Shown one piece after another: positions 18,269 to 53,860 of a DNA stretch of 64,000 bases. The DNA is taken from positions 76,680 to 140,679 of the forward strand of contig NZ_JAWKJQ010000006.1 in NCBI RefSeq assembly GCF_041393715.1, read 5' to 3'. Position numbers and translations under genes: made by a program. Source of the stretch: Nocardioides sp. GTDB lineage: Bacteria; Actinomycetota; Actinomycetes; Propionibacteriales; Nocardioidaceae. The notes beneath the pieces were generated by a model. It saw only the letters and a list, made by a program, of their open reading frames with translations. It ran no database searches and was not told where the DNA came from. The first letter of the stretch is position 1. Each line of letters opens with the position of its first letter.

Positions 18269-18301
18269 AATCTGTCGCCCGGCGCTTAGCAACGGCTTAG
18301 C
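18269..18301 (-). promoter_or_regulatory. SARP-type operator/promoter 1
   Basis: GCTAAGC-N4-GCTAAGC-N9-CAGATT on the minus strand. Confidence 0.75.
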
Positions 18302-18349
18302 GCCGGGAACGTGCTGTGGACGTGGGCCGAGGAACGGGTCGACCAGGGG

Positions 18350-20671
18350 TCAGCCGACGACCCGCACCCGGACCCGCACCACGTCGCGGATGCCGTCGCC
18401 CACCGGGTTGTGGACGGCGTGCAGGGACCAGGTGGCGACCTGGCCGACCGTGGCCTTGGCGCCGGCCTTGACGGTCAGCCGGACGGTGCGTGAGGCGCCG
18501 GGAGCGACGTCGAGGAGGGAGTAGGTCCCGGCGGCGACCTGGGGGGTGATGGCGGTGCCTCCGGCGGTCCAGCGCCGGGTCAGCCCGGAGGTGCTCGACC
18601 TCGCCTCCGCGAGCGACCAGCGGTCGACGGCGTCCCCGTCGTTGGTGATCCGCACGGTGAAGGTCCGCTTCGCGCCGCGCTTCAGCGAGACCTGGACGGT
18701 CTGTCCGGACCCGGTGGTGTTGTAGACGTCGTCACCCAGATAGCTCCCGCTGCCGACCCGGACCTCCGCGTCCGGCCGGTAGGTCGGCGTGGGCGTCGGC
18801 GTGGGCGTCGGGGTCGGCGTCGGCGTGGGCGTCGGGGTCGGCGCGGGTCCGGGGTCCGCCGACTCGAGGGCGTCGCCCAGCGTCGTGCGGGCCCGGTCGA
18901 GGTCGGCCTGGCCGAAGGTGGTGGAGAAGGCGACGGCGTCGAGGTTGCCGCCGAGCAGGCTCAGCGCCGTGGAGCGGGCCAGCGCCGCGGTGTCGGCGTG
19001 GGCGGCGGCGAGCCGGAGGTACTCGTAGTCCTCCCGGCCGTCGCGCAGGCGCTTGAGCCGGATCGACTCGATCGGGATGTCGGTGCTGCCGCCGATGCAG
19101 CCCGGCCCGGTGCCGGGAGGGCAGGCGCGGCCGGGGTAGAACAGCGTGCCGTCGCCGTTCATGCCGGACTCGTAGAGGCAGTTGCTGCCGCCGGCGCCGC
19201 AGTCGTTCCAGGCCTGGCCGAGGCGGTAGTCGACGCCCCAGTAGAGCTCGCCGGTGGCGCCGAGGAGGAAGGCGGTCCACGGCATCGCCCGGGCCTGGGA
19301 GGCGGGCTGGTCGATGCCGTAGCCCGCCCACCCGTCGTAGAAGGGGTCGTTCCAGCCCGGGTCGCCCGGGTTGTTGCAGGCGGCCGCCTCGCAGGAGTTG
19401 TAGATCCAGACCTTGTTGGCCTGGCCGTCGCCGGTCGCGGCCGCCCAGCCGTCGTACGACGGCCGCTGGTTGCCCTGGAAGGCGCCGTTGCGGCCATCGA
19501 GCATCCGGGCCAGGACCACCATGTCGTCGACCCAGGAGTCGGCGCCGTTGGCCTTGGCGTAGGGCAGCGGGGTGGTGACCAGCTCTCGCATCCCCCGGGA
19601 CTGGGCGACGGCGTGGTGGTCCGCGCAGGCGGCCCAGTTGGCGGCGCTCTGGTTGGGCTCGTCGCAGGTGTAGTAGGAGAGGCGGTCGGCGAAGCCGTCG
19701 GCCGTGGCCTCGCTCTTCCACGCGTCGAGACAGGCGGCCTGGCAGTAGTGCCAGAGGACGAGGTTGGTGGCCTTGGCACCGGGCAGCCGGATCGGGCTCC
19801 CGACGGACGCGGGAGCGGGCGTGCCGTTGAGGATCGGCAGCACCTGCTGGCGCCAGCTGGTCCGCATCGCCCCGGACAGCGCGGCGCCCCGGTCGATCTG
19901 CCAGGGGGTGGCCAGGGTGACCCGGTTCTCCAGCGCGACCCGCTCGTAGACGGCGGAGAGCCTGTTGGCCTCGTCCACGTCGCCGTGGCAGGTCCCGGAG
20001 CCGGTGTGGACCTGGCACTGCTTGGTGGGCTCGGTCAGGAAGACGCTCTCCAGCGAGGAGGTCGACGGCAGCACCACGTTGCGCACCCTGACCGTCAGGG
20101 GGACGGTGCCGATCGTGGTGGCGCCGTCCTTGATCGTCAGGCTGCCGGTGTAGGTGTCCGGCGCCTGGTCGCGGGCGGCGAGGACGTCGACCCACAGGAC
20201 GGCGCGGCCCTGGGCGGGCACGGCCGCGCCGAACGCGGCCCGCTTCTCGCCGTAGATCGGGTCGACCTGGGGGACCAGCGCGTCGGGCCACCGCCCGACC
20301 GTGGACTCACCGTCGCTGAGGTGGTCGGCGGAGACCGCGTAGTACTGCTCCCGATATACCGTGAGCGCGCTCGCCGGGAGCGTCCCGCCGCGGGCGCCGG
20401 TCAGGTCGGAGGTCTCGACCTCGAGGCGACCGATCCCGGCGCCGTCGGCGCGGACGGCGACCTGGAAGGACTCGAACTCGTTGCGGGCGACGGTCACGTC
20501 GGCGGCCGACGGGCCGCCCGGCGTCGCGTCGTCGGCCTTGAGGGTGACCAACGGGCCGAGCACGGTGAGGCTCGACGCGGCGGCCTGCGCGGCGGTCGCC
20601 GAGACGACGGCGACCAGGGTCGCGGTGACCGAGGTGGCGAGGGCGAGAGCGGCGGCGCGGCCGAGGTGCAT
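18350..20671 (-). CDS. Secreted DUF4091/GH123-like putative glycoside hydrolase with Pro-Thr linker and C-terminal beta-rich module
   Basis: Signal peptide; ARNEFESFQV, YYTCDEP, GELYW, GDGTLFYPG, SIRLKRLRDGREDYEY; (PT)n linker. Confidence 0.72.
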   Translation of the reverse strand: MHLGRAAALALATSVTATLVAVVSATAAQAAASSLTVLGPLVTLKADDATPGGPSAADVTVARNEFESFQVAVRADGAGIGRLEVETSDLTGARGGTLPASALTVYREQYYAVSADHLSDGESTVGRWPDALVPQVDPIYGEKRAAFGAAVPAQGRAVLWVDVLAARDQAPDTYTGSLTIKDGATTIGTVPLTVRVRNVVLPSTSSLESVFLTEPTKQCQVHTGSGTCHGDVDEANRLSAVYERVALENRVTLATPWQIDRGAALSGAMRTSWRQQVLPILNGTPAPASVGSPIRLPGAKATNLVLWHYCQAACLDAWKSEATADGFADRLSYYTCDEPNQSAANWAACADHHAVAQSRGMRELVTTPLPYAKANGADSWVDDMVVLARMLDGRNGAFQGNQRPSYDGWAAATGDGQANKVWIYNSCEAAACNNPGDPGWNDPFYDGWAGYGIDQPASQARAMPWTAFLLGATGELYWGVDYRLGQAWNDCGAGGSNCLYESGMNGDGTLFYPGRACPPGTGPGCIGGSTDIPIESIRLKRLRDGREDYEYLRLAAAHADTAALARSTALSLLGGNLDAVAFSTTFGQADLDRARTTLGDALESADPGPAPTPTPTPTPTPTPTPTPTPTYRPDAEVRVGSGSYLGDDVYNTTGSGQTVQVSLKRGAKRTFTVRITNDGDAVDRWSLAEARSSTSGLTRRWTAGGTAITPQVAAGTYSLLDVAPGASRTVRLTVKAGAKATVGQVATWSLHAVHNPVGDGIRDVVRVRVRVVG

Positions 20672-20715
20672 CGAGGACTCCTTCGTCGGGCCCCCTGTGG
20701 TGGGCCGGTGGAAGG

Positions 20716-20748
20716 AGGTTCGCGCCCGCCGCTTAGCGACGGCTTAGC
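20716..20748 (-). promoter_or_regulatory. SARP-type operator/promoter 2
   Basis: GCTAAGC-N4-GCTAAGC-N9-GAACCT on the minus strand. Confidence 0.75.
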
Positions 20749-20763
20749 GCTCGGGGGACGGGC

Positions 20764-22254
20764 TCAGCGGCCCACCCACCGCGAGGTGCCGGTGGTCCGC
20801 ACCACCATCAGGACGTCGGGAGCACCGGAGACGTTGGCGATGTTGCGACTGCTCCCGGCAAGACCGCGACGGTCGACGCAGGCGACCTCGCCGCTGGGCG
20901 GCCGGCCGCTGCTCGTGCACGCCTTGACGACGCGGTAGGGCTTGGACCCGGACTTGCGGAGGATCTTCACGTTCCACCAGCGCTTGCCGCCCAGGACGCT
21001 GGCGTCGAAGCGCATCCGGATCAGCGCGGGCCGCGCCGGGGTGGCCTTCAGGGAGCTCGCGTGCACCGTGAACGGGAAGCCCAGGTCGGCGCCGCTGGAG
21101 GTGGACCCGAGCTTGCGGACGACCACCCGGGCGCCGTTGGTGTCGATGGTCGGGACCCGCAGCTCGGCACTCTGCGGGAAGTCCGGTGTCGTCGACGGCA
21201 CGCACGCGGGATCGTCGGGCTGGACGCAGGCCCCGGTGCCGTACGTCGACCCGCCGGCCACCTGCGCGGCCTGCACCGGCCCGGTCGGCAGCAGCAGCGT
21301 GCCCGAGGCCACCGAGGCAGTGCCCGGGGTCGGCTGGGAGTAGCTCGCGGTGACGAGGGAGAGGCCGGTCCCGCCGCTCTTGCGGATCAGGCCCTGGTTG
21401 ACCAGCCTGCTCAGCGTCGCGATGCCGGTGTCGGCCTCGATCTTGCCCTCGAGGTAGCCGCCGTCGCCTTCGAAGCGCAGCGTGCCGGTGCCCGGGGCCG
21501 CCGTCCGATGCGGGCGGAGCGCCAGCCGGGTGCCGTGGTCGGCCGCGAGGTAGGCGCCCGCGCCGACCCGCACCAGCCCGCGGGCCACGACGACCGTCTG
21601 GTCCCCGATGTTGACGCCGCCGCCGCGGACGTCGACCACCCCACGGTCGTCGACCTCGAGGTGGAAGGTGTCGCCGGCCACCGGCGTCGGGACGGGCGAG
21701 GTGCAGGTCTCCTCGCCGGGATAGCTCACCCCCGGGGTGCTGTCGTAGGCACAGTCGCGGGTGAGCAGCGTCGCGGCGGAGCTGACGTCGTGCTCCAGGA
21801 CCAGCGTGCCCTTCACATGGAGCTTGGAGACGCCACCGAGCGTGCCGCCGACCACCTCCAGCCGGCCGTTGCTGCGCACGAGCGAGTCGGCGTCGGACGA
21901 CTGGTCGCCGTAGAGGAAGAGCTTGCCGCCCGGGTCGACGTGCACGGTGGCACCGCCGGCGATGTCGAGGGTGGTGACATGGCCCTCCTGGCCGGCGGCG
22001 ATCCGGGGCAGGCCGCCGCTGGGGATGCACACGTCCGGGTCGCCGCCGTGGAGCGGCGCACCGTCGCTCCAGTTGGCGTCGGTCTCCCAGTCGTCGGTGG
22101 TGCCCGGACCGACGCCGAGCCCCTGCCAGGTGTTGACCGTCGGCGCCAGCTGGCACAGGCCGGGCAGCGCGGACGTCGGGGCCGCCTCGGCTCCGGACAG
22201 CAGCGATCCGCCCAGCAGCAGCGTGACGACGGCAGCGGTGAGCACACGCCTCAT
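20764..22254 (-). CDS. Hypothetical secreted protein
   Basis: Signal peptide MRRVLTAAVV...AEA; W..DANWS..P...D.V.I-like N-terminus, beta-rich body, several Cys; TAGACT -10 at 22305-22310; start may be 22272. Confidence 0.72.
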   Translation of the reverse strand: MRRVLTAAVVTLLLGGSLLSGAEAAPTSALPGLCQLAPTVNTWQGLGVGPGTTDDWETDANWSDGAPLHGGDPDVCIPSGGLPRIAAGQEGHVTTLDIAGGATVHVDPGGKLFLYGDQSSDADSLVRSNGRLEVVGGTLGGVSKLHVKGTLVLEHDVSSAATLLTRDCAYDSTPGVSYPGEETCTSPVPTPVAGDTFHLEVDDRGVVDVRGGGVNIGDQTVVVARGLVRVGAGAYLAADHGTRLALRPHRTAAPGTGTLRFEGDGGYLEGKIEADTGIATLSRLVNQGLIRKSGGTGLSLVTASYSQPTPGTASVASGTLLLPTGPVQAAQVAGGSTYGTGACVQPDDPACVPSTTPDFPQSAELRVPTIDTNGARVVVRKLGSTSSGADLGFPFTVHASSLKATPARPALIRMRFDASVLGGKRWWNVKILRKSGSKPYRVVKACTSSGRPPSGEVACVDRRGLAGSSRNIANVSGAPDVLMVVRTTGTSRWVGR

Positions 22255-22332
22255 CGGCAGGACCCTTCCCATGCGCGGCCCCCCACGGGCCAAACCAGGG
22301 CGCGAGTCTAAGCCAGCCGCTAGCGTTCGGCC

Positions 22333-25266
22333 ATGGAGATCCGGCTACTCGGACCGCTCGAGGTGGCGGTCGGCGACCGGATCGTCCCGCTGGGCTCCCC
22401 CCGGCAGCGCGCCGTCTTCGCGATGCTGGCCCTGGCCGCGCCCGAGGTCGTCTCGACCGACCGGTTCGTGGACGGCCTGTGGGGGGAGGACCCGCCGGCC
22501 AACCCGACGGCCGCCCTCCAGGTGTTCGTCCACGGCCTCCGCAAGGCGCTCAAGGCCGAGGCGCTGGACGGGTTGGTGACCCGCGAGCACACGGGCTACC
22601 GCCTGTCGGTCCCGGCCGACTCGACGGACATCGGCCGGGCCTCGGCGCTCCACGACGCCGCCCGCCGGGCCCGCGACGCCGGCGACCTGGGCTCAGCCGC
22701 GGCCGCCCTCTCGGAGGCACGGTCCCTCTGGCGCGGACCGGCGCTCGCCGACGTCCGGGCCACCCCGTTCGCCGAGCCCGAGGCGGTCCGCCTCGACGAG
22801 CTGCGCCTGCTGGTGGAGGAGGACTACGTCGACGCCCAGCTGGCGCTGGGCCAGCACACCTCGCTGGTCGACCCGCTCAGCAGCGCGGTCAACGAGCACC
22901 CGATGCGTGAGCGGTTCTGGGGCCAGCTGATGACCGCGCTCTATCGCTCCGACCGCCAGGCCGACGCGCTGGCGACCTATGCCCGGGCCCGCGAGCGACT
23001 CGCCGACGAGCTCGGCATCGACCCCGGCCAGGCGCTCCAGCAGCTCGAGCTGGCGATCCTTCGCCAGGACCCCTCGATCGCCCCGCCCACGCCGGAGGCA
23101 CCCGCGGTGGTCACGCCGCGCTCCCCCAGCCGGATCCCCCGGCCGGCGACGCCGACGTTCGGCCGCGACGAGCTCGTGGCCGACGTACGCCGGCTGCTGC
23201 GGCGCGACGAGGTGCGTGTCGTGAGCCTCACCGGGCCCGGCGGGTCGGGCAAGTCCCGGCTGGCGGCGCTCGCCGCGCTGGCCGCCGAGGACGACTTCGC
23301 GGGCGGGGTCGTCCACCTCGCGCTGACCGAGCGCACCGAGGCCGACCAGGTCCTGGCCGAGCTGGCGCTCGCGCTGACCGGCGGCGACGACCTGTCCGGG
23401 CTCGACGGACTCGACCTCGATGCGCTGGTGGTGCTCGACAACCTGGAGTCGGTGGCGGCCGCGCACGACCTGGTCACCGAGCTGGTCGACCGCGCCACCG
23501 GACCGACGGTGCTGGTCACCAGCCGGTTGCCGCTGCGGATCCGCGCCGAGCACGACGTGTCGGTGCCGCCGCTCGAGGTCCCCGCACCCGGCGCCACCGA
23601 GGCCGAGGTGCTGGCGGCGCCGGCCGTGGCGATGTTCCTCGACCGGGCGCACGCGGTCGCCCCCGACACACCCCTCGACGACCGGCTCGACGACGTCGCC
23701 GACCTGTGTCGCTTCCTCGACGGGTTCCCGCTGGCCCTCGAGCTGGCGGCCGCCCAGGTGCGACTGCTCACCCCCGCCGACATCCGGGCAGCACTGGAGC
23801 GCGACCTCGGCGCCCTGCAGGCCCGCGGGGTCGACGTACCCGAACGGCAGCGGACGCTGGCCGCGACCATCGAGTGGAGCTATGACCGGCTCGACCCGCC
23901 GGCCAGACGGGTGGTCGACCGGCTGGCGCTCTTCGAGCGCAGCTTCACCCTGGAGGCGATCGAAGCCGTCTGCGACGACGTCCCCGACGTCCTGGGTGCG
24001 CTCGCCCAGGTGGTGGAGGCCCGCCTGGTGCGGCCCGCCGAGTCGCGGGTGGAGGTGCGGTTCGTCGCCCTCGGCACGGTGCGCGCCTTCGCACGGGCCC
24101 GGCTGCAGGAGCACGACGACACCGCCGACTGGGCCGCCCTGTCCGAGCACCTGCGAGACCGGGTGACCGCCTGGAGCGAGGAGATCGACGGACCGAGCGG
24201 CACCGCCGTGCTCGGCCGCTACGACGACACCGCGGCCGACCTCGACGCCGCCCTCGACCGCGCCCGCGACGAGGGCGAGCTCGACCTCGCCGTCGCGCTG
24301 GCCGAGCTCCTCACCGACTTCTGGATCGCCTCCGGCCGCCTCAGCGACGGGCTGCGGCGGGTCACCGGGCTGCTCGAGGCGACGGAGCTCACCGACACCG
24401 CGCGCGCCACGCTCCACCTGGTGGCCGGCAAGCTGGCCTACCACCTCACCGACTGGGGTCGCACCGCCGAGGAGTGCCGGGCGGCCATCGCACTGACCGA
24501 GGACCCCCGGCTGCTCGCCGACGCCCGCTGTCATCTGGGGGCGGCCCTGGTGGTGACCGGCGACCCGGAGCAGGGGACCGCCCTCGCGCAGGAGGCGCTG
24601 AGCGCCGCCGAGGCCCTGGGGGACTACCGGATCACCGTGGTCGCCCTGTCGATGCTGGCCATCGGATGTGCCGTGCGCGGCGACCTGGCCGGGGAGCGTG
24701 GCTACTACGAACGGCGACTCGCCGTGGTCGGCGACCGCGGCGACGCCGCGCGCCTGGCCGACACCCTCAACACCCTCGCCGAGATCGCCCTCGACGACGG
24801 CGACGCCGCCACGGCCCGGGCCTATGCCTCGGAGTCGGTGGGCATCGCCGGCACCGCGCTGCCGCTGGAGCGTCGGGACGCGACGATCAGCCTGGCGCGG
24901 GCGGCGGCCGTCGAGTCCGATCCCGTCGAGCTCGCCGAGCATCTGCGGGTGGCGACCGAGCTGTCGGACCGCACCGGCCAGGCGCTGGCGGTCGCGCAGT
25001 GCCTGCGGGTCGGCGGCTGCCTGGCGGTCCTCAGCGACGAGCAGCCGCTCGCCGTCCGCGCGTTCGCCGCGGCGCAGCGCCTGTCGCCCTCGCCGTCCGG
25101 CACCGACGAACCCCTCGAGACCGACCTCGCGGCCCGCCTCGCGCAGGCACGGGCGGCCGTCGGGGAACATGCCGCCCGGGAGTGGACGCTGGGCGCCACC
25201 CTCCCGCTCCGGTCGACCCGAGACGGCATCGACGCCCTCGTGGCCCGGACACTAAGCGGCCACTAA
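22333..25266 (+). CDS. AfsR/SARP-family regulator 1 (winged HTH + BTAD + NB-ARC-type ATPase + TPR)
   Basis: IRLLGPLEV, HPMRERFWGQLMTALYRSDRQADAL, GPGGSGKS, LVVLDNLE, LDGFPLALELAAA; TAGCGT -10 6 nt before ATG. Confidence 0.92.
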   Translation: MEIRLLGPLEVAVGDRIVPLGSPRQRAVFAMLALAAPEVVSTDRFVDGLWGEDPPANPTAALQVFVHGLRKALKAEALDGLVTREHTGYRLSVPADSTDIGRASALHDAARRARDAGDLGSAAAALSEARSLWRGPALADVRATPFAEPEAVRLDELRLLVEEDYVDAQLALGQHTSLVDPLSSAVNEHPMRERFWGQLMTALYRSDRQADALATYARARERLADELGIDPGQALQQLELAILRQDPSIAPPTPEAPAVVTPRSPSRIPRPATPTFGRDELVADVRRLLRRDEVRVVSLTGPGGSGKSRLAALAALAAEDDFAGGVVHLALTERTEADQVLAELALALTGGDDLSGLDGLDLDALVVLDNLESVAAAHDLVTELVDRATGPTVLVTSRLPLRIRAEHDVSVPPLEVPAPGATEAEVLAAPAVAMFLDRAHAVAPDTPLDDRLDDVADLCRFLDGFPLALELAAAQVRLLTPADIRAALERDLGALQARGVDVPERQRTLAATIEWSYDRLDPPARRVVDRLALFERSFTLEAIEAVCDDVPDVLGALAQVVEARLVRPAESRVEVRFVALGTVRAFARARLQEHDDTADWAALSEHLRDRVTAWSEEIDGPSGTAVLGRYDDTAADLDAALDRARDEGELDLAVALAELLTDFWIASGRLSDGLRRVTGLLEATELTDTARATLHLVAGKLAYHLTDWGRTAEECRAAIALTEDPRLLADARCHLGAALVVTGDPEQGTALAQEALSAAEALGDYRITVVALSMLAIGCAVRGDLAGERGYYERRLAVVGDRGDAARLADTLNTLAEIALDDGDAATARAYASESVGIAGTALPLERRDATISLARAAAVESDPVELAEHLRVATELSDRTGQALAVAQCLRVGGCLAVLSDEQPLAVRAFAAAQRLSPSPSGTDEPLETDLAARLAQARAAVGEHAAREWTLGATLPLRSTRDGIDALVARTLSGH

Positions 25267-25283
25267 GCCTGGTCACCCAGGCT
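25251..25283 (+). promoter_or_regulatory. SARP-type operator/promoter 3, overlapping the regulator stop codon
   Basis: ACTAAGC-N4-ACTAAGC-N9-CAGGCT; TAA stop 25264-25266 lies inside repeat 2. Confidence 0.75.
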
Positions 25284-25324
25284 CTCCTCACCGGGCCCGC
25301 CGGGCCCCACCCCGAGGAGAGCTC

Positions 25325-26791
25325 ATGAGCACGCCCGCCCCCCTTCGCCTGTCCGCGGCCGCGGCCGGACTCGTCTGCGCCGCCCTGCTCGGCACCGCCG
25401 GCGCGTCGCACGCCGACGGCGCCGGCCCGGCGCCGCAGCGCACCCAGGGAGCCGCACAGGCGGGTGCGAAGGCCGCTGCCGCCGAGTCGCCGACCGGTCG
25501 GGCTGCGGCGTTCGACCAGGTGACCCGCCTGGCCCGGCGACACGGCACCGTGACGGTGACGATCATCCTCGCCGAGGCTCCGACCCGGGCGCCCGACGCC
25601 GGGGTGCGCTCCCGGCTCACCGACCAGGCGTCCGCCGGACGGGCGGCCGCACTCCGGGCGCTGGACGGACCCACCGGCACCAGCAGCGTCCCCGGCGCCC
25701 CGGCGATGACGGCCACGGTCGACGCCGCCGACCTGGCCGCTCTGCGCCGCGAGCCGGCCGTGCTGTCCATCGCCCGCAACATCGACTTCCGGGCCGCCGG
25801 CACCACGACCTTCGGCATCCAGGACGGCGTGCAGCTGCCCCGGTGGTGGCACCTGAAGAAGATGGGCCTCGACTGGACCTACGCCCACGGCTACAACGGC
25901 GCCGGCCAGCGGATCGTGGTGGTCGACAGCGGCGTCGACTACACCCACCCCTGGCTGCAGGGCCACGTCGTCGACGGCGCCTGCTTCTCCTCCGACGGCT
26001 GCGGGAACGGACTGTTCTACGCCTACGGCATCCAGGCCGGGAAGAACTGCACCTACGCCGTCAGCTGCGCCCACGGCACCCACGTCGCCCAGACCGCGGC
26101 CGGCAAGTACGGCGCCGCGCGCTCGGCCGGCATCGTCGCGATCAACGCCAGCCACCGCAGCGCCAGCGGCCGGCCCACCTACGGCACCGCCGACCTGATC
26201 AACGCCCTGTGGTACTCCTACTACTACGTCAGCCCGGCCCCGGCCGCCGTCAACCTGAGCATCGGCGGCAGCACGACCTACGCCACCACCTGCGACAGCA
26301 CGAACCAGCCGCTCGCCGACTGGATCACCGCGCTGCGCAGCCGCGGGACGGCCACGGTGATCGCCGCCGGCAACAGCAACTCCTCGACCGGGGTGAGCTA
26401 CCCCGCCTGCATGAGCCGCGCGGTCGTGGTCGGCAACGCGACGCTCACCAGCGCCACCGGGAGGCCCGCGGTGCTCGGCGGCCGGGCCGGGGCCTCCAAC
26501 AGCAACCGGCTGGTCGACCTGTGGGCGCCCGGCACCGACATCTGCTCGGCCGTCCCGACGAGCCTCGACGTCGACGGGACGCGTGACGGGGCCGACTGCA
26601 GCTGGTACGGCACCTCGATGGCCGCTCCCCAGGTCAGCGGCGCGTTCGCGGTGCTGAAGGCGGCACGGCCGTCGTACTCGGTGAACCAGAGCCTCTCGGC
26701 CTTCGTCCGCAACGGCCTGGCGATCACCGACTCCCGCAACGGCGTCACCCGATCGATGGTCAACGTCGCCAACGCGGTGTACTACGGCTGA
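25325..26791 (+). CDS. Secreted subtilisin-like serine protease (S8)
   Basis: Signal and pro-region; catalytic triad VVDSG, HGTHVA, GTSMAAP; oxyanion AAGN. Confidence 0.92.
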   Translation: MSTPAPLRLSAAAAGLVCAALLGTAGASHADGAGPAPQRTQGAAQAGAKAAAAESPTGRAAAFDQVTRLARRHGTVTVTIILAEAPTRAPDAGVRSRLTDQASAGRAAALRALDGPTGTSSVPGAPAMTATVDAADLAALRREPAVLSIARNIDFRAAGTTTFGIQDGVQLPRWWHLKKMGLDWTYAHGYNGAGQRIVVVDSGVDYTHPWLQGHVVDGACFSSDGCGNGLFYAYGIQAGKNCTYAVSCAHGTHVAQTAAGKYGAARSAGIVAINASHRSASGRPTYGTADLINALWYSYYYVSPAPAAVNLSIGGSTTYATTCDSTNQPLADWITALRSRGTATVIAAGNSNSSTGVSYPACMSRAVVVGNATLTSATGRPAVLGGRAGASNSNRLVDLWAPGTDICSAVPTSLDVDGTRDGADCSWYGTSMAAPQVSGAFAVLKAARPSYSVNQSLSAFVRNGLAITDSRNGVTRSMVNVANAVYYG

Positions 26792-26858
26792 CCGGAGTTC
26801 GCGCCCGGCGCGGTGCGGGATCACCGTTGCCGCCCCGGGCGCGGATAGGGTCCACCCC

Positions 26859-27809
26859 GTGGTGGGTGGCTACGTCGTCGCGACCGGTGGCATCGCGCTG
26901 GACCTGAAGGCCAGGGCCAACGCCGCGCTGGTGCGCGGCAGCAGCAACCGCGGCCGGCTGACCCGATGCCCGGGTGGGGTGGCCCGCAACATCGCCGAGA
27001 ACCTCGCCCGGCTGGGCACCCCGGTGCACCTGGTGGGTGCCGTCGGCGACGACCCCCTCGGGGCGGAGCTGGTCGAGCAGACCCGGGCAGCGGGGGTGAC
27101 CGTGGTCCCGGTCGGCCAGCGGGAGCTGACCGGCACCTACACCGCGATGCTCGACGAGAACGGCGAGCTGGTCGCCGGGGTCGCCGACCTGTCCGCGACC
27201 GAGGGACTGGCTCCCGACGACCTGGCCGTGATGCTGCCGTTGGTGGCCGGCGCCGCGCTCCTGGTCGCCGATGCCAACCTGCCGGTGTCGTTCCTGCACA
27301 ACCTGGTGGTTCGAGCGCGCGACGCCCGGGTCCCGGTGGTGCTGGACCCGGTGAGCGTGCCCAAGGCCGACCGGGTCTCGGCGGTGCTCGACCCGCGGCA
27401 CCCGGTGCTGCTGGTGAGCCCCAACCGCGACGAGCTCGGCGCGCTGACCGGGCACTCCACCGGGTCACGCTCGGAGCTGGTCGGCGCGGCGCGACGGCTG
27501 TGCGCGATGGGCGCCGAGAACGTCTGGGTGCGGCTCGGCGCCGACGGGTCGCTGCTGGTGCCGCGGGCCGACGAGCCGGTGCCCCTCGGCGCCCACAAGG
27601 TGACGGTCGTCGACGTCACCGGTGGCGGCGACGCGATGCTGGCGGGGCTGATCCACCGATGGCTGCTCGGCGACCCGCTGGCCGAGGCCGCGGCCTACGG
27701 ACAGGCGGTCGCGGCGCTGACCGTCGCGCGCGAGGAGACGGTGCGGCCCGACCTCGGGCCCGACCTGGTCGAGGCCCAGCTGGCCAGGCCCGTCGGGCGG
27801 TGGCGATGA
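26859..27809 (+). CDS. psuK: PfkB-family kinase, probably pseudouridine kinase
   Basis: GGVARNIAENLARLG, SPNRDEL, DVTGGGD; coupled to psuG; TAGGGT -10 7 nt before GTG. Confidence 0.8.
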   Translation: MVGGYVVATGGIALDLKARANAALVRGSSNRGRLTRCPGGVARNIAENLARLGTPVHLVGAVGDDPLGAELVEQTRAAGVTVVPVGQRELTGTYTAMLDENGELVAGVADLSATEGLAPDDLAVMLPLVAGAALLVADANLPVSFLHNLVVRARDARVPVVLDPVSVPKADRVSAVLDPRHPVLLVSPNRDELGALTGHSTGSRSELVGAARRLCAMGAENVWVRLGADGSLLVPRADEPVPLGAHKVTVVDVTGGGDAMLAGLIHRWLLGDPLAEAAAYGQAVAALTVAREETVRPDLGPDLVEAQLARPVGRWR

Positions 27810-28789: not shown

Positions 28790-28790
28790 G

Positions 28791-38074: not shown

Positions 38075-38893
38075 TCAGCAGTTCACCGCCAGCTCGACGT
38101 TGCAGGCGTCGTTGCCGGGGCCGCCGTAGGCCCGGTCGAAGCCCTGGTTGCCGCGCAGCCGGTCGGCGCCTGCGTGGCCGAACAGCCGGTCGTCGCCCGC
38201 GCCACCGAAGGCACGGTCGTCGCCCGCCCCGCCGTAGACGTAGTCATCCCCGGTGCCACCGTCGAGCCGGTCGGCCGCGCCGTCGCCGAAGAGCTGGTCG
38301 TCGTCTCCGTCGCCGTAGACCTCGTCCCGGCCGCCGTCGCCGTGCAGGTAGTCCTCGCCGGTCGAGCCGCGCAGCCGGTCGTCTCCCGGGCCGCCGTTGA
38401 CCAGGTCGTTGCCGTCGCTGCCGTCGAGCACGTCGCGGTCCGCGCCGCCCCACAGCTTGTCGTCTCCGTCGTTGCCCTGGAGCCGGTCGTTGCCCTTGTC
38501 GCCGAAGAGCTCGTCGTCGCCCCGGTTGCCCTGCACGACGTCGTCGCCCTCGTCGCCGTGGACCGTGTCGTTGCCCGCGTTGCCCTGCAGCCGGTCATCG
38601 CCCTTGCCGCCGAGGATGGTGTCGTCACAGGCACCGCCGGTCACCACGTCGTCGCCGTTGCCGGCGTAGATGATGTCGTGACCGCCGCCGCCGTCGATGG
38701 TGTCGTTGCCCCCGCGCCCGTAGATGATGTCGTTGTACGGCGTCCCGACGAGGTTGTTGTTGGCGCTGTTGCCGAAGATCACCTGCCCGGGCGTGGTGCA
38801 GTCGGGCGGCAGGGCGCTCGCCGTCGCCGGCCCGAACGAGACGCTGGCGAAGCCGGCCCCCAGCAGGGCCGCGAGTGTGATCGGGAACTTCAT
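38075..38893 (-). CDS. Secreted protein with RTX/hemolysin-type Ca-binding repeats
   Basis: Sec signal peptide followed by many GGxGxDxLx nonapeptides. Confidence 0.88.
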   Translation of the reverse strand: MKFPITLAALLGAGFASVSFGPATASALPPDCTTPGQVIFGNSANNNLVGTPYNDIIYGRGGNDTIDGGGGHDIIYAGNGDDVVTGGACDDTILGGKGDDRLQGNAGNDTVHGDEGDDVVQGNRGDDELFGDKGNDRLQGNDGDDKLWGGADRDVLDGSDGNDLVNGGPGDDRLRGSTGEDYLHGDGGRDEVYGDGDDDQLFGDGAADRLDGGTGDDYVYGGAGDDRAFGGAGDDRLFGHAGADRLRGNQGFDRAYGGPGNDACNVELAVNC

Positions 38894-39015: not shown

Positions 39016-39048
39016 GCTAAGCCGGCGCTAAGAGGTGGGCTCGATGGT
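39016..39048 (+). promoter_or_regulatory. SARP-type operator/promoter 4
   Basis: GCTAAGC-N4-GCTAAGA-N9-GATGGT. Confidence 0.72.
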
Positions 39049-39096
39049 TGCCGCAAGGCACCCGGAGAGGACCGGGTCCGACCCAAGGAGAAGCCC

Positions 39097-39714
39097 ATGA
39101 ACACCACCGCCGGCACCGCAGCCGCCGTCCTCGCAACCACCCGGACCCACCGGGCCGCCGCCGCCCGGATCATCGCCGTGTTCGCGGCCGTGGTGTCGTC
39201 GCTGCTGATGACGCTGTTCGCCGCGACCCCGGCCGAGGCAGCCACCACCGTCGGCGCCGCCGGGCGGATCGGCAGCATCACCCTCAACGGGCCGATGATC
39301 AACGGCTACGACGTCGGCCAGCGGCTGGCGAACGGCACCTACTTCTACTCCAAGAACTGGAACGTCGGCGGCTTCACCGTCACCCGGAGCCCCTCGTCGT
39401 ACCGGCAGCGGGTCACGGGGAAGTCGACGATCCAGAAGTGGAACGGAGCCCGGTGGGTCGACATCCAGTCACGCACCTGGTCGGGCACCGTGGCCGGCAC
39501 CGGCACCCTCCGCTTCCCCGGGTGGACCTACTCGCCGACCAACGTCCCCAACAACCGCGCGTCGTACCGCGTGAACTTCCTGATCACCTGGACCAACACC
39601 GCCAACGGCCAGTTGGTCGCCCTCACCGGCGTGCTGCCCAACAAGTACTCCGACAACCGCTGCGCGACCACGTTCTTCACCTGCCGGACCTACACCGACG
39701 GCATCAACTTCTGA
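39097..39714 (+). CDS. Hypothetical secreted protein (paralog-like to 17672..18226)
   Basis: Signal peptide ending AEA; KWNGARW segment, C-terminal Cys pair; AAGGAG RBS. Confidence 0.78.
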   Translation: MNTTAGTAAAVLATTRTHRAAAARIIAVFAAVVSSLLMTLFAATPAEAATTVGAAGRIGSITLNGPMINGYDVGQRLANGTYFYSKNWNVGGFTVTRSPSSYRQRVTGKSTIQKWNGARWVDIQSRTWSGTVAGTGTLRFPGWTYSPTNVPNNRASYRVNFLITWTNTANGQLVALTGVLPNKYSDNRCATTFFTCRTYTDGINF

Positions 39715-42925: not shown

Positions 42926-42956
42926 GCCACCCACCGAGGCTCGTTCCGCCTCGTGA

Positions 42957-42987: not shown

Positions 42988-43010
42988 GGTCGTCGCCTCG
43001 CCTCGCGGCG

Positions 43011-46657: not shown

Positions 46658-46675
46658 CGTGATGGGGAAGTCACG
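46658..46675 (+). promoter_or_regulatory. Leader hairpin upstream of lytic transglycosylase (loop TGGGGAAG)
   Basis: CGTGA-TGGGGAAG-TCACG; same loop as at 8321-8350. Confidence 0.4.
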
Positions 46676-46750
46676 AGGGCAGGACATGGGGTCAGGACCA
46701 TCGCCCCGCCGCGAGCGACGGCGGTGGCCGTGGCCCTACGGGGAGTTGCC

Positions 46751-48093
46751 ATGACCGAGCGGGACCCGGTCGGCGCCGACAAGGTCGGCGGCCGGCACAC
46801 CTGGGTCATGCGCGCGGCCACGACGGTGCCGATCGTCGCCATGACCGTGGGCTGGTCCCTGGTGCTCGGGGAGCGTGCCGACGCCCCCATGGCCGAGCTG
46901 ATGGCCCCGGTCTCCGCCCCGGTCGCCGCCACCGTCGCTCCGGCGACCCTCCCCGAGGCCGTGACGGCACCCGTCACCGACACTCCCGGCAGCACCCGCG
47001 CCGCCCCGACCAGCGACCTGTCCCGCACGGCCAGCGCGGCCGACATCCCCGACGCGGCGCTCGCCGCCTACCAGCGCGCCGCGACCGTCATCAACGCCAC
47101 CGACCGCGGCTGCCACCTCCCGTGGGAGCTGCTCGCCGGCATCGGCCGGGTCGAGTCCAACCACGGACGGTTCGGCGGCAGCGAGCTCGACGGCGCCGGC
47201 GTGGCCACGCCCGCCATCATCGGCGTCGCCCTCGACGGCAGCCACGGCACCTCGGTGATCAAGGACACCGACCGCGGTGAGCTCGACGGCGACTCGACCT
47301 ACGACCGGGCCGTGGGCCCGATGCAGTTCATCCCCTCCACCTGGACCTACGTCGGTGTCGATGCCGACGGCGACGGTCGCCGCGACCCGCAGGACATCGA
47401 CGACGCCGCCTGGCCGCGGCCGTCTACCTGTGCGTCGGCGACCAGGACCTCTCCACGGTGGCCGGCCAGCGCTCGGCCGTCCACCGCTACAACCACAGCC
47501 AGTCCTACGTCGACCTGGTGCTGCGCATCGCCCGGGCCTATGCCCACGGCGACTACACCTCGGTCCCCGGCACCAGTCCCGCGTCCATGCCCACCACCAC
47601 CCAGACCCGTCCCACGGAGACGGTCGTTCCCCCGGCCGCCCCCGCCGACCCGCCGAAGCAGCCCCAGGCCGAGCAGGTCACCCCCGACCCTGACGGCGGC
47701 AAGCCGTCGGGCACCCCACCGCCGCTGGTCGACCCGGTTCCGACGACTGACGACCCGGGCGGGGACCCGACGTCGACCGAGCCGGAGCCGGCCGACCCGA
47801 CCCCGAGCGACGACCCGACCCCGAGCGGCGAGCCCGAGCCCTCCGGTGACGCCACTCCCGCGGGCGAGGCCACGCCCGCGGCCGACACGGGCTCCGCAGC
47901 GCCGGCGCCGATCACCCCCGCCTCGGCGGCCGCGCTCTGCGTCGAGGTGGGCTACGTCGACGACCCCGACGTGGCCGACGAGCCCTACGACGCCTGCCTG
48001 GCCCTGCTCCTCGGCGACCCGCCAGAGATCGGTCTCCCCACGAAGGGCGAGCTCCTGGCCCGCCTCGAGGCCGAGGGCATCCCGCTCCCCTGA
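46751..48093 (+). pseudogene. Lytic transglycosylase (SLT/MltB-like) with Pro/Thr-rich tail; apparent -1 frameshift at 47410
   Basis: GIGRVESNHG, DRAVGPMQFIPSTW, DPQDIDDAA, then LAAAVYLC...RYNHSQSYV in another frame; adding one C restores the frame. Confidence 0.82.
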
Positions 48094-48106
48094 CGCCGGA
48101 CCCGGC

Positions 48107-50782: not shown

Positions 50783-51006
50783 GGACGTCCCTTGCTCGTG
50801 CGGTTCACCGGTTCGGTCCGAGGCGGGCTCCGAGACGAGCCCCGGTCGAGATCCGGGTGGGCGACGGGGCCCACGGCGGAACACGGTAGCGCGAACGTCC
50901 GCGGAGTCCAGCGCGGTGGTCGGTCGGCGGTGGTCGCGAAGGCCCCGGCGCCCACCTGGAGAACGGGGTGCGTCCGGGCGGCTGCGACGTGGGTAGGTTC
51001 GGCTCG

Positions 51007-53832
51007 ATGGCACCTGCGTCCTCCGCTCCAGAGACGCGGGCCGAGGTAAGGCTCCTCGGCCCGTTCGAGGTGCGCGTGGGCGGCCGGCCGGTGACCGTGA
51101 GCGCCGCCCAGCAGCGGGTGGTGCTCGCCGCGCTCGCCCTCCGGGTCGGCGAGCCCGTGACGACCGACACGCTGTGCGACGCGCTGTGGCCCGAGCAGGT
51201 CCCCAGCACCGCCCGCACCTCGCTGCACAACACGATCCGGCGACTGCGGCTGTTGCTTGCCGACGCGGGAGCGGGCGAGCCCCTCCGCACCGGACCCGAC
51301 GGCTATCGGCTCGACCTGCCCGACGGCGCCGTCGACGCCGTGGCGTTCACCAACGGCGTGACCCGGGCTCGCAGGCTGGCGGCCGGGGGCGACGAGGCCG
51401 CCGCGCGGTCGGCGTACGACGAGGCGCTGGGGTGGTGGCGCGGTGAGCCGATGCAGGCACTGGTCGGCGCCGGCTGGCTCGCCGGCCCGGCCGAGCAGCT
51501 GACCGAGCTGCGGCTGACCGCGACCGAGGAGTGGTCCGACCTGGAACGCGCCGCCGGTCGTCCCGAGCGCGCCCTCGAGCGGCTGGCTCCCCTGGCCGAG
51601 GCGCAGCCGCTGCGCGAGGGACTGCGGGCCCGGCTGATGCTGGCCATGCAGGCGGCCGGACGGACGGCGGACGCGCTGGCCCACTACGGCGCCGCGCGGC
51701 GACTGCTGGTCGAGGAGCTGGGCGTGGAGCCCGGCCCCGCCCTGCGCGCTGCCCACGCCGAGGTGCTCCGGCTCGATGAGGAGGCCAGCACGGCCGACAC
51801 CGCCGCACCACTGGTGGCCCCCGCCCAGCTGCCCGCGACCGGCACCTCGGTCGTCGGCCGTGACGACGAGCTCGCCCTGCTCGACGGGGCGCTGCCCGAG
51901 CCCACCGAGCGCCCCGTCGTCTGCGTCGTCTCCGGGGCCGCCGGCGTGGGCAAGACCACGTTGGCGGCGCGGTGGGCGCACCGCACGGCGAGCGCGTTCC
52001 CCGACGGCCAGCTGTGGGTCGACCTGCGTGGGTTCGACGCCCAGGGCCGGCCGCTGACACCGGGGCAGGTGCTGGAGCGCTTCCTGACCGCCTTCGGTGT
52101 GGCCGCCGACGACCTGCCGGTCGACCCCGACGCGGCGGCCGACCTCTACCGGAGCCTGATCGCCGACCGGCGGATGCTGGTGGTGCTCGACAACGCCCGC
52201 GACGCGGCGCAGGTGCGCCCGCTGCTGCCGACGGGCCCGGGCAGCCTGGCCCTGGTCACCAGCCGCCACGACCTGAGCTCGCTGGCCGTCACCCAGGGCG
52301 CCCGGCTGGTCTCCCTGGACGTGCTGCCCGACGGCCCCGCCGAACGCCTGCTGGCCGAGCGGCTCGGCGTGGCTCGGCTGCGGGCCGAGCCGGCCGCCGT
52401 ACCCGAGATCCTGGCGCGCTGCGGCGGCCTGCCGTTGGCGCTGGCCCTGGTCGCCGGGCGGGCGGCGGCGCAGCCCCGGCTACCGCTGCTCACCCTGGCC
52501 GAGCAGCTGCGCGACTCCTCCCTGGACGTGCTCGGCCTGGGCGACCCGGCGACCGACCTGCGGGCCGTGCTGTCCTGGTCGCTCGACGCGCTGACGCCCG
52601 ACACCGCGCGGGCCTTCGCGCTGCTCGGCGTGCACCCCGGTCCCGAGGTGGACGCGGCCGCGCTGGCGAGCCTGGCCGAGGTGCCGGTCCGCCAGGCCCG
52701 CACGACACTGGACGAGCTGGTCCGCGCCCACCTCGCCGTGCCGCGTGGCCCGCACCGCGTCGCCATGCACGACCTGGTGCGCGACCACGCCCGCGAGCTG
52801 GCTCGCGGCCTGCTGACCGCGGACGAGCGCGTCGACCTGGTCCGCCGGCTGGCCGACCACTACCTGCGGTCGGCGTATGCCGCGACCCGGACGCTGTTCA
52901 CCACGCCGTTGCCGTTCGCGCTCGACCCACCCGTGCCGGGCGTCGTCACCGAGACCTTCGCCGACCCCGAGCACGGCACGGCCTGGCTGCAGGCCGAGCT
53001 GCCCGCCCTGGCCCGCGTGCTGGAGGCCGCCGCCGAGGTGCCCGGGCTGGCGGACTACCCGTGGCGGATGGCCCGCGCGGTGAGTGGCTACCTGTGGGAC
53101 CGCTGCGCCTGGGCCGACATCGCGCACCTGCACGGGCTCGCCCTGCGGGCCAGCCTCCGCGCGAGCGACCGAGTCGGGGAGGCCGATGCCCGTCACGGCC
53201 TCGGCGACGCGTACGCCGGCCTCGGACGGTTCGACGAGGCCGGCGCCGAGCTGGCGCGGTCGCTCGATCTCTACGCCGCCATCGGCGACGTCATGGGTGA
53301 GAGCGATGTGCGCTGCACCATGGGCCGGATGCTCGAGCTGGCCGGCGACGCCGAGGGCTCGATCCACCACACCGGCCTCGCGCTGGAGCTCTACCGGCAG
53401 ATCGGCGACCGCAGCGGCGAGGCGGTCGCGCTCAACAACATCGGCTGGATGCACTCCACCCTCGGCGACTTCGAGCCCGCGCTGGCCAGCTGCACGGCCG
53501 CGCTCGACCTCTACCGCGCCGACGGCGACCACGCCGGGGTCGCCTACGCCCTGGACAGCATGGGCCGTGCCTACCTCGGGCTCGGCGACCTGGCCCGGGC
53601 CATCGAGTGCTACGCGGAGGCCGCCGACAGCGCTCGGGCGATCGGCCAGCACTTCAACCGGGCCGCCAACCTCACCCACCTGGGCGACGCCCGGCACGCG
53701 AACGGGGAGCCCGAGGCGGCCCGCGTCGCCTGGCGGGATGCGCTCGTCCTCCTCGAGGAGATCGGGCACCCCCGGGCGGAGTCGCTCCGGTCCCGGCTGG
53801 CGCTGCTCGGCGCCGGGACCGCCTCGCGTTAG
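51007..53832 (+). CDS. AfsR/SARP-family regulator 2 (winged HTH + BTAD + NB-ARC + TPR)
   Basis: VRLLGPFEV, QPLREGLRARLMLAM, GAAGVGKT, LVVLDNA, CGGLPLAL, TPR repeats; TAGGTT 7 nt before ATG. Confidence 0.93.
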   Translation: MAPASSAPETRAEVRLLGPFEVRVGGRPVTVSAAQQRVVLAALALRVGEPVTTDTLCDALWPEQVPSTARTSLHNTIRRLRLLLADAGAGEPLRTGPDGYRLDLPDGAVDAVAFTNGVTRARRLAAGGDEAAARSAYDEALGWWRGEPMQALVGAGWLAGPAEQLTELRLTATEEWSDLERAAGRPERALERLAPLAEAQPLREGLRARLMLAMQAAGRTADALAHYGAARRLLVEELGVEPGPALRAAHAEVLRLDEEASTADTAAPLVAPAQLPATGTSVVGRDDELALLDGALPEPTERPVVCVVSGAAGVGKTTLAARWAHRTASAFPDGQLWVDLRGFDAQGRPLTPGQVLERFLTAFGVAADDLPVDPDAAADLYRSLIADRRMLVVLDNARDAAQVRPLLPTGPGSLALVTSRHDLSSLAVTQGARLVSLDVLPDGPAERLLAERLGVARLRAEPAAVPEILARCGGLPLALALVAGRAAAQPRLPLLTLAEQLRDSSLDVLGLGDPATDLRAVLSWSLDALTPDTARAFALLGVHPGPEVDAAALASLAEVPVRQARTTLDELVRAHLAVPRGPHRVAMHDLVRDHARELARGLLTADERVDLVRRLADHYLRSAYAATRTLFTTPLPFALDPPVPGVVTETFADPEHGTAWLQAELPALARVLEAAAEVPGLADYPWRMARAVSGYLWDRCAWADIAHLHGLALRASLRASDRVGEADARHGLGDAYAGLGRFDEAGAELARSLDLYAAIGDVMGESDVRCTMGRMLELAGDAEGSIHHTGLALELYRQIGDRSGEAVALNNIGWMHSTLGDFEPALASCTAALDLYRADGDHAGVAYALDSMGRAYLGLGDLARAIECYAEAADSARAIGQHFNRAANLTHLGDARHANGEPEAARVAWRDALVLLEEIGHPRAESLRSRLALLGAGTASR

Positions 53833-53860
53833 CGCGGCGTTAGCGGCCCGCTGCCAGGTT
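53827..53860 (+). promoter_or_regulatory. SARP-type operator/promoter 5 (variant heptamer), overlapping regulator 2 stop codon
   Basis: GTTAGCG-N4-GTTAGCG-N9-CAGGTT; TAG stop 53830-53832 lies inside repeat 1. Confidence 0.7.

Follow-up and report, generated by a model that had tools for sequence, protein, structure and literature searches.

To our knowledge, Streptomyces antibiotic regulatory proteins (SARPs) have been studied almost entirely as switches of antibiotic gene clusters. The small cluster-situated members of the family, such as ActII-ORF4, DnrI and RedD, lie in biosynthetic clusters and read heptamers of the TCGAGXX type. EmbR of Mycobacterium tuberculosis is a SARP-type regulator of the embCAB arabinosyltransferase genes and provides a precedent for control of the cell envelope rather than of an antibiotic cluster. 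SARP sites consist of direct repeats at a distance of 11 or 22 bp, the 3' copy being located 8 bp from the -10 element (PMC10936776). The afs box spans -40 to -19 (centre at -29.5) and overlaps a poor -35 element, and the -10 element of afsS reads CACTGT; SARPs bind as two protomers placed side by side, which contact RNA polymerase, a mode described as "sigma adaptation" (PMC10936776). In a survey of 3,200 AfsR-like proteins, 58% were located outside predicted clusters, with unknown targets (bioRxiv 10.64898/2026.09.02.748808). Here we analysed a stretch of 64,000 nucleotides from Nocardioides sp. (contig NZ_JAWKJQ010000006.1, positions 76,680 to 140,679), referred to as the window. It carries genes for two AfsR-like regulators outside any biosynthetic cluster and five sites that are probably activator-dependent promoters of the SARP type, each in front of a gene for a predicted exported protein.

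Genes in the window were called by a method based on GC content at third codon positions (GC3), and their proteins were searched against Pfam and NCBIfam. A sequence-only reading of the window had proposed five sites of identical geometry. This geometry, heptamer-N4-heptamer-N9-[C/G]ANNNT, could be read directly at 5/5 sites; the start of site 5, which had been given as 53827, was corrected by one base to a true extent of 53828-53860. Sites 1 to 4 have repeats built on CTAAG (type 1), and site 5 has GTTAGCG repeats (type 2). The five promoters are:

18262-18301, minus strand: site 1 promoter; GCTAAGC (18301-295), cgtt, GCTAAGC (18290-84), N9, -10 hexamer CAGATT (18274-69); predicted start A 18262.
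20709-20748, minus strand: site 2 promoter; GCTAAGC (20748-42), cgtc, GCTAAGC (20737-31), N9, -10 hexamer GAACCT (20721-16); predicted start A 20709.
25251-25290, plus strand: site 3 promoter; ACTAAGC (25251-57), ggcc, ACTAAGC (25262-68), N9, -10 hexamer CAGGCT (25278-83); predicted start A 25290.
39016-39055, plus strand: site 4 promoter; GCTAAGC, cggc, GCTAAGA, N9, -10 hexamer GATGGT (39043-48); predicted start A 39055.
53828-53867, plus strand: site 5 promoter; GTTAGCG (53828-34), cggc, GTTAGCG (53839-45), N9, -10 hexamer CAGGTT (53855-60); predicted start G 53867.

The frequency of these patterns was compared with that in dinucleotide-preserving shuffles. Scanning the window for RYTARSS-N4-RYTARSS-N9-SANNNT gave 4 matches versus 0.00 expected, so that the pattern does not occur at background frequency; site 4 is missed solely through the last A of its second heptamer. 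CTAAGC-N5-CTAAG was found 4 times versus 0.02 expected, and the relaxed pattern RYTAR-N6-RYTAR recovered 5/5 sites with 0.14 expected. The pentamer CTAAG itself had been supposed to be scarce at this GC level, which did not hold: 10 copies were found versus 10.7 expected from dinucleotide content. Its distribution is uneven, with 8/10 copies inside the four type-1 boxes and the other two in a tRNA-Thr gene and at position 22308.

If transcription is taken to start 7 nt past the hexamer, the 22-bp box extends from -39/-40 to -18/-19 relative to this predicted start. The distance from the second heptamer to the hexamer is 9 nt as first drawn and becomes 8 nt when the register of the heptamers is moved by one. 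The core promoters are weak, since the hexamers read [C/G]ANNNT and not TANNNT and the -35 position is taken by CTAAGC. In a consensus scan of 17600-26900, no sigma-70-type -35/-10 consensus promoter was found. The box geometry is the same as that of published SARP promoters, because both the span of the box and the CANNNT or GANNNT form of the -10 element agree. The likeness to AfsR/afsS of Streptomyces coelicolor extends to the 22-bp box with two 11-bp repeats at about -40 to -19 over a poor -35 element and to the weak CANNNT -10 element (PMC10936776). The regulator-2 repeat starts with YGTT, as does the published afs repeat CGTT(T/C)ATCG (PMC10972967). The domain order, firm for regulator 2 and weaker for regulator 1, and the position of a target gene directly 3' of the regulator gene are also shared. 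However, the boxes read RYTAAGC and GTTAGCG, the host belongs to the Nocardioidaceae, and the targets are exported hydrolases and unknown secreted proteins instead of the small regulator AfsS. Compared with the small cluster-situated SARPs, heptameric direct repeats with 4-nt spacers over the -35 position, in two or three copies, are a common feature (PMC10972967), whereas the heptamer core here is TAAG or TAGC and no biosynthetic cluster is present in the window.

The two regulator genes each run into one of the boxes:

22333-25266, plus strand: regulator 1, a large SARP with winged helix-turn-helix, BTAD, a putative P-loop NTPase and a putative tetratricopeptide repeat (TPR)-like region.
50968-53832, plus strand: regulator 2, an AfsR-like large SARP with winged helix-turn-helix, BTAD, NB-ARC and TPR.

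The TAA stop codon of regulator 1 (25264-25266) falls inside the second heptamer of site 3, and the TAG stop codon of regulator 2 (53830-53832) inside the first heptamer of site 5. The proposed assignment of both proteins to the SARP/AfsR type agrees with the domain searches, which found Trans_reg_C and BTAD, and with sequence matches to the EmbR and AfsR structures. For regulator 1, BTAD (4.5e-45, 154 bits) and Trans_reg_C (1.5e-08, 35 bits) both exceeded the Pfam cut-offs, and the closest structures by sequence were EmbR 2FEZ (4e-51) and AfsR 8K60 (7e-44); a Walker A motif, GPGGSGKS, lies at residue 301. For regulator 2, BTAD was matched at 1.6e-32 (113 bits), NB-ARC at 3.5e-10 (40 bits, cut-off 23.5) and TPR_12 at 1.8e-17 (63.7 bits, cut-off 30.1), with Trans_reg_C at 24.6 bits just below its cut-off of 26.2. 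This protein has the Walker A motif GAAGVGKT and an MHD-like AMHD motif at residue 600; its best structural-sequence match is EmbR 2FEZ (E 2e-35), and the AfsR structure was also matched. Both regulators align with the EmbR and AfsR structures over about 260 residues. EmbR is thus the best structural-sequence match for both SARP domains (2FEZ, 4e-51 and 2e-35), but it has an FHA domain in place of the NTPase and TPR regions, and its targets and binding sites are unrelated to those described here.

The predicted recognition helices are invariant inside each group of orthologues and different between the groups. The regulator-1 group (8 orthologues) has ALQVF[VIM]HGLRK (ALQVFVHGLRK in regulator 1) and the regulator-2 group (5 orthologues) TSLHN[TS][IV]RRLR. 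The corresponding helix of AfsR is VRTYASRLRK, in which T88 and R92 contact bases; regulator 1 differs from it by having V and G at these positions.

The promoter of regulator 1 itself is of a different kind:

22320-22335, plus strand: predicted promoter of regulator 1, with -10 hexamer TAGCGT, 6 nt before the ATG.

A TANNNT hexamer 6-7 nt before the ATG is conserved at orthologous positions in all five orthologous loci described below, and the regulator 1 mRNA is probably leaderless. At this promoter no SARP box was found and there is no sign of autoregulation. The CTAAG at 22308 was considered as a sixth, autoregulatory site and was dropped, as it is not conserved in the orthologues and the conserved element there is the TANNNT -10 hexamer. 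Divergent from regulator 1, 20764-22272 (minus strand) encodes a secreted protein of 502 amino acids (aa) that gave no Pfam, NCBIfam or PDB-sequence match and has no conserved box. No other neighbour of regulator-1 orthologues is as constant (L001-L004, L156 and L158), and the protein could be a partner of, or an input to, regulator 1.

The genes downstream of the five sites, in the order of the sites, are:

17672-18226, minus strand: secreted 184-aa protein, target of site 1, from a small family of hypothetical proteins.
18350-20671, minus strand: secreted GH123-like enzyme, 773 aa, target of site 2, with a Pro/Thr linker and a C-terminal domain.
25325-26791, plus strand: secreted S8 subtilase, 488 aa, target of site 3 (Peptidase_S8, 2.9e-25).
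39097-39714, plus strand: secreted 205-aa protein, target of site 4, a distant paralogue of the 184-aa protein.
53977-55701, plus strand: trypsin-like S1 (HtrA/MarP-like) serine protease, target of site 5 (Trypsin_2, 2.6e-21).

These identities bear out what had been proposed, namely two related unknown secreted proteins, a GH123-like enzyme, an S8 protease and an S1 protease. No Pfam or NCBIfam match was obtained for the 184-aa protein, and its 26 homologues are all unnamed. Its AlphaFold2 model is a beta-sandwich with a mean confidence score (pLDDT) of 80, for which a fold search gave no significant PDB match. The 205-aa protein is 29% identical to it in BLASTP (E 4e-6). The product of 18350-20671 matches the beta-N-acetylgalactosaminidase structure 8K2F (E 9.6e-24), and its Pfam GH123 matches are weak; by sequence it appears to be a GH123-like beta-N-acetylhexosaminidase/galactosaminidase. 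The site 5 protease has a signal peptide, a C-terminal membrane segment, a Pro-rich tail and NCBIfam matches of the HtrA/MarP type.

Signal peptides had been claimed for all five genes, and 5/5 N-termini are indeed signal-peptide-like, the four type-1 genes having been checked with a crude heuristic that looks for a basic N-terminus, a hydrophobic core and an AxA-like motif. Among the type-1 boxed genes of the window and the related loci, signal-peptide-like N-termini were found in 21/21, from at least 7 protein families. The name "secretome regulon" is supported in this part. Elsewhere, on the other hand, the GCTAAGC box also precedes genes for non-secreted proteins and for peptides resembling ribosomally synthesized and post-translationally modified peptides (RiPPs), as well as a SARP gene. 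The name is fair for this lineage, whereas the GCTAAGC heptamer is not exclusive to it.

Conservation of the sites was examined at orthologous regulator loci. One scan of species-representative genomes for regulator-1 orthologues gave five loci (L001-L005) with 60-82% identity, all from Nocardioidaceae or related metagenome-assembled genomes, which assigns the window to this family. Each of them carries RYTAAGN-N4-RYTAAGN-N9-[C/G]ANNNT at orthologous promoters, which lie at or just past the regulator stop codon, before the GH123-like gene and before small secreted proteins. The box orthologous to site 3 overlaps or follows the regulator stop codon in L002 and L004, with a variant box in L005, and boxes orthologous to site 2 are present in L002, L004 and L156. 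A third repeat occurs in L003 (Nocardioides rubriscoriae DSM 23986) and at several metagenomic sites. For homologues of the 184-aa target, the box was found at the same upstream distance in 4/4 fetched loci. Four regulator-2 orthologues with 54-68% identity were located via the protein database (L029, L031, L032 and L033). The trypsin-like protease follows 4/4 of them, even with the wider neighbourhood changed, and 4/4 loci carry YGTTAGCG-N4-GTTAGCG-N9-[C/G]AGNNT at or just past the stop codon, followed by GTACCTGGC at the predicted start. The predicted start G 53867 of site 5 is the first base of this conserved sequence. In the window (53867-53875, plus strand) and in the four orthologous loci, GTACCTGGC is constant from the predicted +1, and the rest of the 30-110 nt leader varies. 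Since GCTAAGC is nearly palindromic, site 5 was also considered as a reversed type-1 site. This was dropped because orientation, spacing, -10 element and the downstream GTACCTGGC are all kept with regulator-2 orthologues, as a distinct box type.

In total, direct repeats at an 11-bp period were seen at 5/5 window sites and at 17 type-1 and 4 type-2 sites elsewhere. That the sites are chance similarities, or copies of duplicated DNA with no regulatory role, might be thought from the clustering of sites 1-3 and from the CTCCTCA and GC hairpin that their leaders share. However, the counts expected from shuffles are about zero, and the boxes are kept before non-homologous genes while the spacers diverge and the regulators are only 60-82% identical. 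In addition, the information is concentrated in TAAG, in the A and T of the hexamer and in the start-site A. Neutral drift would erase boxes at the divergence seen in the spacers, and this explanation, to which we give almost no weight, is effectively refuted by the conservation pattern.

The box type follows the type of the adjacent regulator. RYTAAGC boxes adjoin 7/7 regulator-1 orthologues examined (60-82% identity in the five genome loci), and the GTTAGCG form adjoins 4/4 regulator-2 orthologues. The proposal that regulator 1 reads RCTAAGC and regulator 2 reads GTTAGCG gains from this correspondence, and also from the finding that each regulator group has its own invariant recognition helix. 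Two box types matched with two helix types are the strongest available argument that each regulator would read its own box.

We trained a position weight matrix only on the 17 foreign type-1 sites, with the window left out. This matrix finds exactly four type-1 sites in the window, with 47.9 bits (site 1), 45.4 bits (site 2), 30.4 bits (site 3) and 28.5 bits (site 4), and no other window position scored above 8 bits. In 467 kb of control DNA from 23 loci around distant SARPs, no type-1 box was found. Information is concentrated in TAAG of both heptamers, in the A and T of the hexamer and in an A at column 40 that is preceded by C. This A is conserved with 2.2 bits and coincides with the predicted start. 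In L004, where the entire leader is deleted, the start codon of the orthologous GH123-like gene coincides with column 40, so that a leaderless mRNA is predicted. Start codons of long high-GC3 open reading frames (ORFs) likewise fall on column 40 behind three boxes from metagenomes, two of which have a third repeat. A start 7 nt past the hexamer is supported because these four start codons sit at this column.

Site 4, within a divergent intergenic region 14 kb from regulator 1, had been included in the regulator 1 regulon. Its score with the foreign-only matrix is consistent with this, and its target family is boxed in another locus, L155, where a second box precedes a relative of the 205-aa protein. 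A dispersed regulon is supported by L155, because both of its boxes, including the one before the 205-aa relative, occur with no adjacent regulator.

Some results weigh against assigning the sites to the two regulators as AfsR-type proteins. The matches of regulator 1 to AAA_16, NB-ARC, TPR_MalT and TPR_12 were all under the Pfam cut-offs, so that the NTPase plus TPR architecture appears firm for regulator 2 and weaker for regulator 1. The NCBIfam equivalog model for AfsR (NF053617) has a cut-off of 1430 bits, which neither regulator 1 (197 bits, aligned over residues 4-859) nor regulator 2 (450 bits) reached; judged by sequence, the two are AfsR-like and not AfsR. At L155 no SARP gene lies within 10 kb of the two boxes; another SARP could bind there, and adjacency is not obligatory. 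Finally, in metagenomic DNA the exact GCTAAGC box is also found in front of genes for RiPP-like peptides, for non-secreted proteins and for a SARP whose recognition helix differs. Regulator 1 cannot be recognised from this heptamer alone.

The last two results could also be explained if the boxes are bound by another winged-helix activator encoded elsewhere, either a SARP or a response regulator of the OmpR/PhoB family, with the adjoining SARPs as bystanders. OmpR/PhoB-family response regulators also read direct repeats with an 11-bp period. The heptamers here, RYTAAGC and GTTAGCG, bear no resemblance to the Streptomyces PHO box, a comparison for which neither a formal scan nor a search for response regulators was made. 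Overlapping sites of AfsR and PhoP have been reported (PMC10972967). We consider this explanation unlikely. The box type co-varies with the type and the helix of the adjacent regulator in 11/11 orthologous regulator loci, in several species the stop codon of the regulator gene is inside a box or only a few bases away from it, and RYTAAGC boxes are missing from the regulator-2 loci as well as from the 467 kb around distant SARPs.

The metagenome scan for the exact box plus -10 element returned 120 loci, of which about 10 were informative high-GC sites. It is unfit as a census of the regulon, because most of the loci are unrelated low-GC repeats or chance matches. Exact GCTAAGC boxes with stems complementary to the Shine-Dalgarno sequence (anti-SD stems, see below) were seen on the contigs L100 (box at strand index 2507), L077, L106 and L143. 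The genes behind them encode a 51-aa peptide with an ...ATVSGG motif, which looks like a RiPP precursor, Cys-rich peptides of 35-61 aa and a SARP with a helix unlike that of regulator 1. This heptamer is thus found in cluster-like settings as well. A low-GC repeat family, tagattaaGCTAAGCtttaGCTAAGCtttagagcgCACTATAATATAACCTAACTTTACTTT, was present on more than 20 metagenome contigs, mostly from sample Ga0209052 (L040, L041, L044, L049, L060, L073, L076, L079, L093, L098, L104, L109, L110, L124, L125 and others). It has no relation to the sites from actinobacteria and resembles a strong promoter (TATAAT) that is repeated in a single organism or phage.

Based on these comparisons, we infer the following course of binding, activation, transcription start and signalling. 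Most likely, regulator 1 would bind sites 1-4 as a side-by-side dimer on two 11-bp units with RYTAAGC, at about -40 to -19. In this position it would make up for the missing -35 contact and bring housekeeping RNA polymerase to the weak [C/G]ANNNT -10 element, with transcription starting at the conserved A 7 nt past the hexamer. Regulator 2 would act in the same way at site 5 through the YGTTAGCG repeats and thereby activate the gene of the trypsin-like protease directly downstream, mirroring the afsR-afsS arrangement. The activity of both regulators is probably switched by a signal, which might be a nucleotide, a ligand or phosphorylation, because a STAND-type P-loop NTPase and a C-terminal region of the TPR type are present in both, firmly in regulator 2 and less clearly in regulator 1. 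The output would be an exported S8 protease, an S1 protease, a GH123-like hexosaminidase and small beta-sandwich proteins, and not a secondary-metabolite pathway. The gene content of the window accords with the earlier proposal of a setting outside biosynthetic clusters: topA, tmk, an H+-PPase gene, transporters and similar housekeeping genes as well as a thiamine pyrophosphate (TPP) riboswitch were annotated, and no polyketide synthase or nonribosomal peptide synthetase genes were found in the window.

The leaders of the type-1 sites have a further common feature. Past the hexamer, most type-1 sites carry CTCCTC-A, a GC hairpin and then GAGGAG with the start codon. Folding of the sequence from hexamer to start codon gave a two-tier hairpin in 22/24 type-1 leaders. 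The feature was seen in the window as well as in L001-L005, in L155-L158 and in several loci from metagenomes. In the outer stem, the Shine-Dalgarno (SD) region is paired with the discriminator and the 3' part of the -10 element, and the inner GC hairpin begins 3-4 nt past the predicted start site. The stem-loops of sites 3, 2 and 1 are listed with their minimum free energy (MFE), where computed values are given, and their z-scores:

25280-25323, plus strand: site 3 stem-loop, outer stem GGCTCTCCTC/GAGGAGAGCT, inner hairpin GGGCCCgccGGGCCC; MFE -29.5 kcal/mol, z -4.2.
20678-20717, minus strand: site 2 stem-loop, outer stem CTCCTTC/GAAGGAG with an inner GC hairpin; MFE -22.6 kcal/mol, z -3.0.
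18227-18274, minus strand: site 1 stem-loop, weaker; z -1.8.

The z-scores were between -3 and -5 in 9/12 leaders and weak for site 1 (-1.8), site 4 (-1.3) and L155 (-2.7). The arms of the outer stem differ among sites and co-vary, as in GCTCTCCTC/GAGGAGAGC, CTCCTTC/GAAGGAG, GTCTTCTC/GAGAAGAC, GTGTCCCT/AGGGACAC and GAATCTC/GAGATTC. Cognate duplexes had a mean of -14.6 kcal/mol versus -10.8 kcal/mol for non-cognate ones, and 0/20,000 permutations were as good. When only the 12 nt upstream of the predicted start were considered at 12 non-orthologous sites, the co-variation of the arms was still significant (p = 1.2e-4).

The 5' arm precedes the predicted +1, so the complete hairpin would form only on RNA that comes from upstream. 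Most boxes either overlap the stop codon of a gene in the same direction or start 6-70 nt past it, and the divergent site 4 has no anti-SD outer stem. Read-through RNA from the gene directly upstream may fold, mask the ribosome-binding site and perhaps terminate transcription. The SARP-initiated RNA would lack the 5' arm, keep a short 5' hairpin and be translatable. We tentatively propose, with less confidence than in the promoter assignment and as something that may well turn out otherwise, that the promoter-embedded anti-SD arm silences upstream-initiated transcripts, for example the mRNA of the regulator itself or of the secreted-protein gene in front, so that only the activator-dependent start would yield translatable RNA. 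Several observations speak against such a read-through layer. L001 13755, in a divergent region, and probably L038 keep the outer stem with no co-directional upstream gene, and in the site-1 family the outer stem is weak even though a co-directional gene lies upstream. There are also no canonical intrinsic terminators, with 0 terminator-like sites in 17600-26900; the hairpins have no U-tract, and they are followed by the start codon and not by a T run. A strict link between the outer stem and a co-directional upstream gene was therefore given up as only partial, with site 4 fitting and L001 13755, L038 and the site-1 family not. The stem at L001 13755 shows a compensatory U-A to C-G change relative to its L005 orthologue.

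Alternatively, the [C/G]ANNNT-CTCCTC segment could be transcribed, with the start located upstream, in or before the box. All transcripts would then carry the SD-masking hairpin, which would act as a riboregulator or thermosensor, and the heptamers would have another role. It would fit such an arrangement that the 5' arm, which includes the discriminator and some or all of the hexamer, changes in concert with the SD region, as would the persistence of the stem at L001 13755 where a co-directional upstream gene is missing. It nevertheless seems improbable. The A at position 2 and the T at position 6 of the hexamer are invariant at a fixed 9 nt from the second heptamer, and they are kept even where the stem is absent, as at site 4, at the leaderless L004 site and at the type-2 sites. 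The start codons located exactly at column 40 in L004 and at three metagenomic sites would not be expected, and the information profile contains no other conserved -10 element upstream. No Rfam family was matched either: at the gathering threshold of Rfam 15 the window shows only a tRNA and the TPP riboswitch, both elsewhere, and at E<=1 nothing relevant to the leader hairpins was found in 17600-26900. Hairpins in 5' untranslated regions that sequester the SD sequence are known, for example in ROSE and fourU thermometers and in isoform-specific translation from alternative starts, and the pairing of a CUCCU-type anti-SD with the ribosome-binding site across a short hairpin is similar. The difference is that the anti-SD arm here is part of the -10 and discriminator region upstream of the predicted start, so that it would be present only in read-through RNA.

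Several further features were noted. In L004, a tandem duplication (12943 and 14292, plus strand) takes in box and leader together with the 5' part of the S8 protease gene that lies downstream of the regulator-1 orthologue, and the first copy leads to a truncated ORF of 234 aa. Divergent from site 4, 38075-38893 (minus strand) encodes an RTX calcium-binding nonapeptide-repeat protein (HemolysinCabind, 2.4e-54). The TPP riboswitch (13366-13471, minus strand, 65 bits) lies upstream of the solute-binding protein gene 12303-13376, whose product is probably part of a thiamine-related ABC transporter. The gene at 60341-63259 (plus strand), although similar in size, is no third SARP but encodes a 972-aa DEAD-box helicase with a C-terminal MrfA Zn-binding domain (an MrfA/Hrq1-like repair helicase).

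Taken together, the proposed mechanism would be of a known kind, a SARP-dependent promoter, and by analogy its closest model is afsR-afsS. New are the sequences of both boxes and their match with two recognition helices, and likewise the host family and the exported-protein targets. Our literature searches revealed neither SARPs described from Nocardioides nor extracellular proteases under SARP control. Both regulators match the class of "ectopic" AfsR-like regulators in Actinomycetota, with the difference that candidate targets and box sequences can be named here from comparative evidence. The promoter-embedded anti-SD arm could be the part that proves more unusual. If the coupling of promoter and ribosome-binding site is true, it would be a compact insulator that makes the synthesis of the exported proteins strictly SARP-dependent, and the promoter sequence would co-evolve with the downstream ribosome-binding site. 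If functional, the element would also be a simple and portable means of shielding closely spaced genes against read-through expression. The locus provides two out-of-cluster AfsR-like regulators with named candidate targets, new boxes and matching recognition helices. The pair is suited to tests of how SARP DNA specificity is encoded and of the roles of NLR-like SARPs outside secondary metabolism, and the box matrices are directly usable for regulon prediction in related genomes. In the Nocardioidaceae, the role of these regulators appears to be the control of exported proteases, a hexosaminidase and unknown beta-sandwich proteins.

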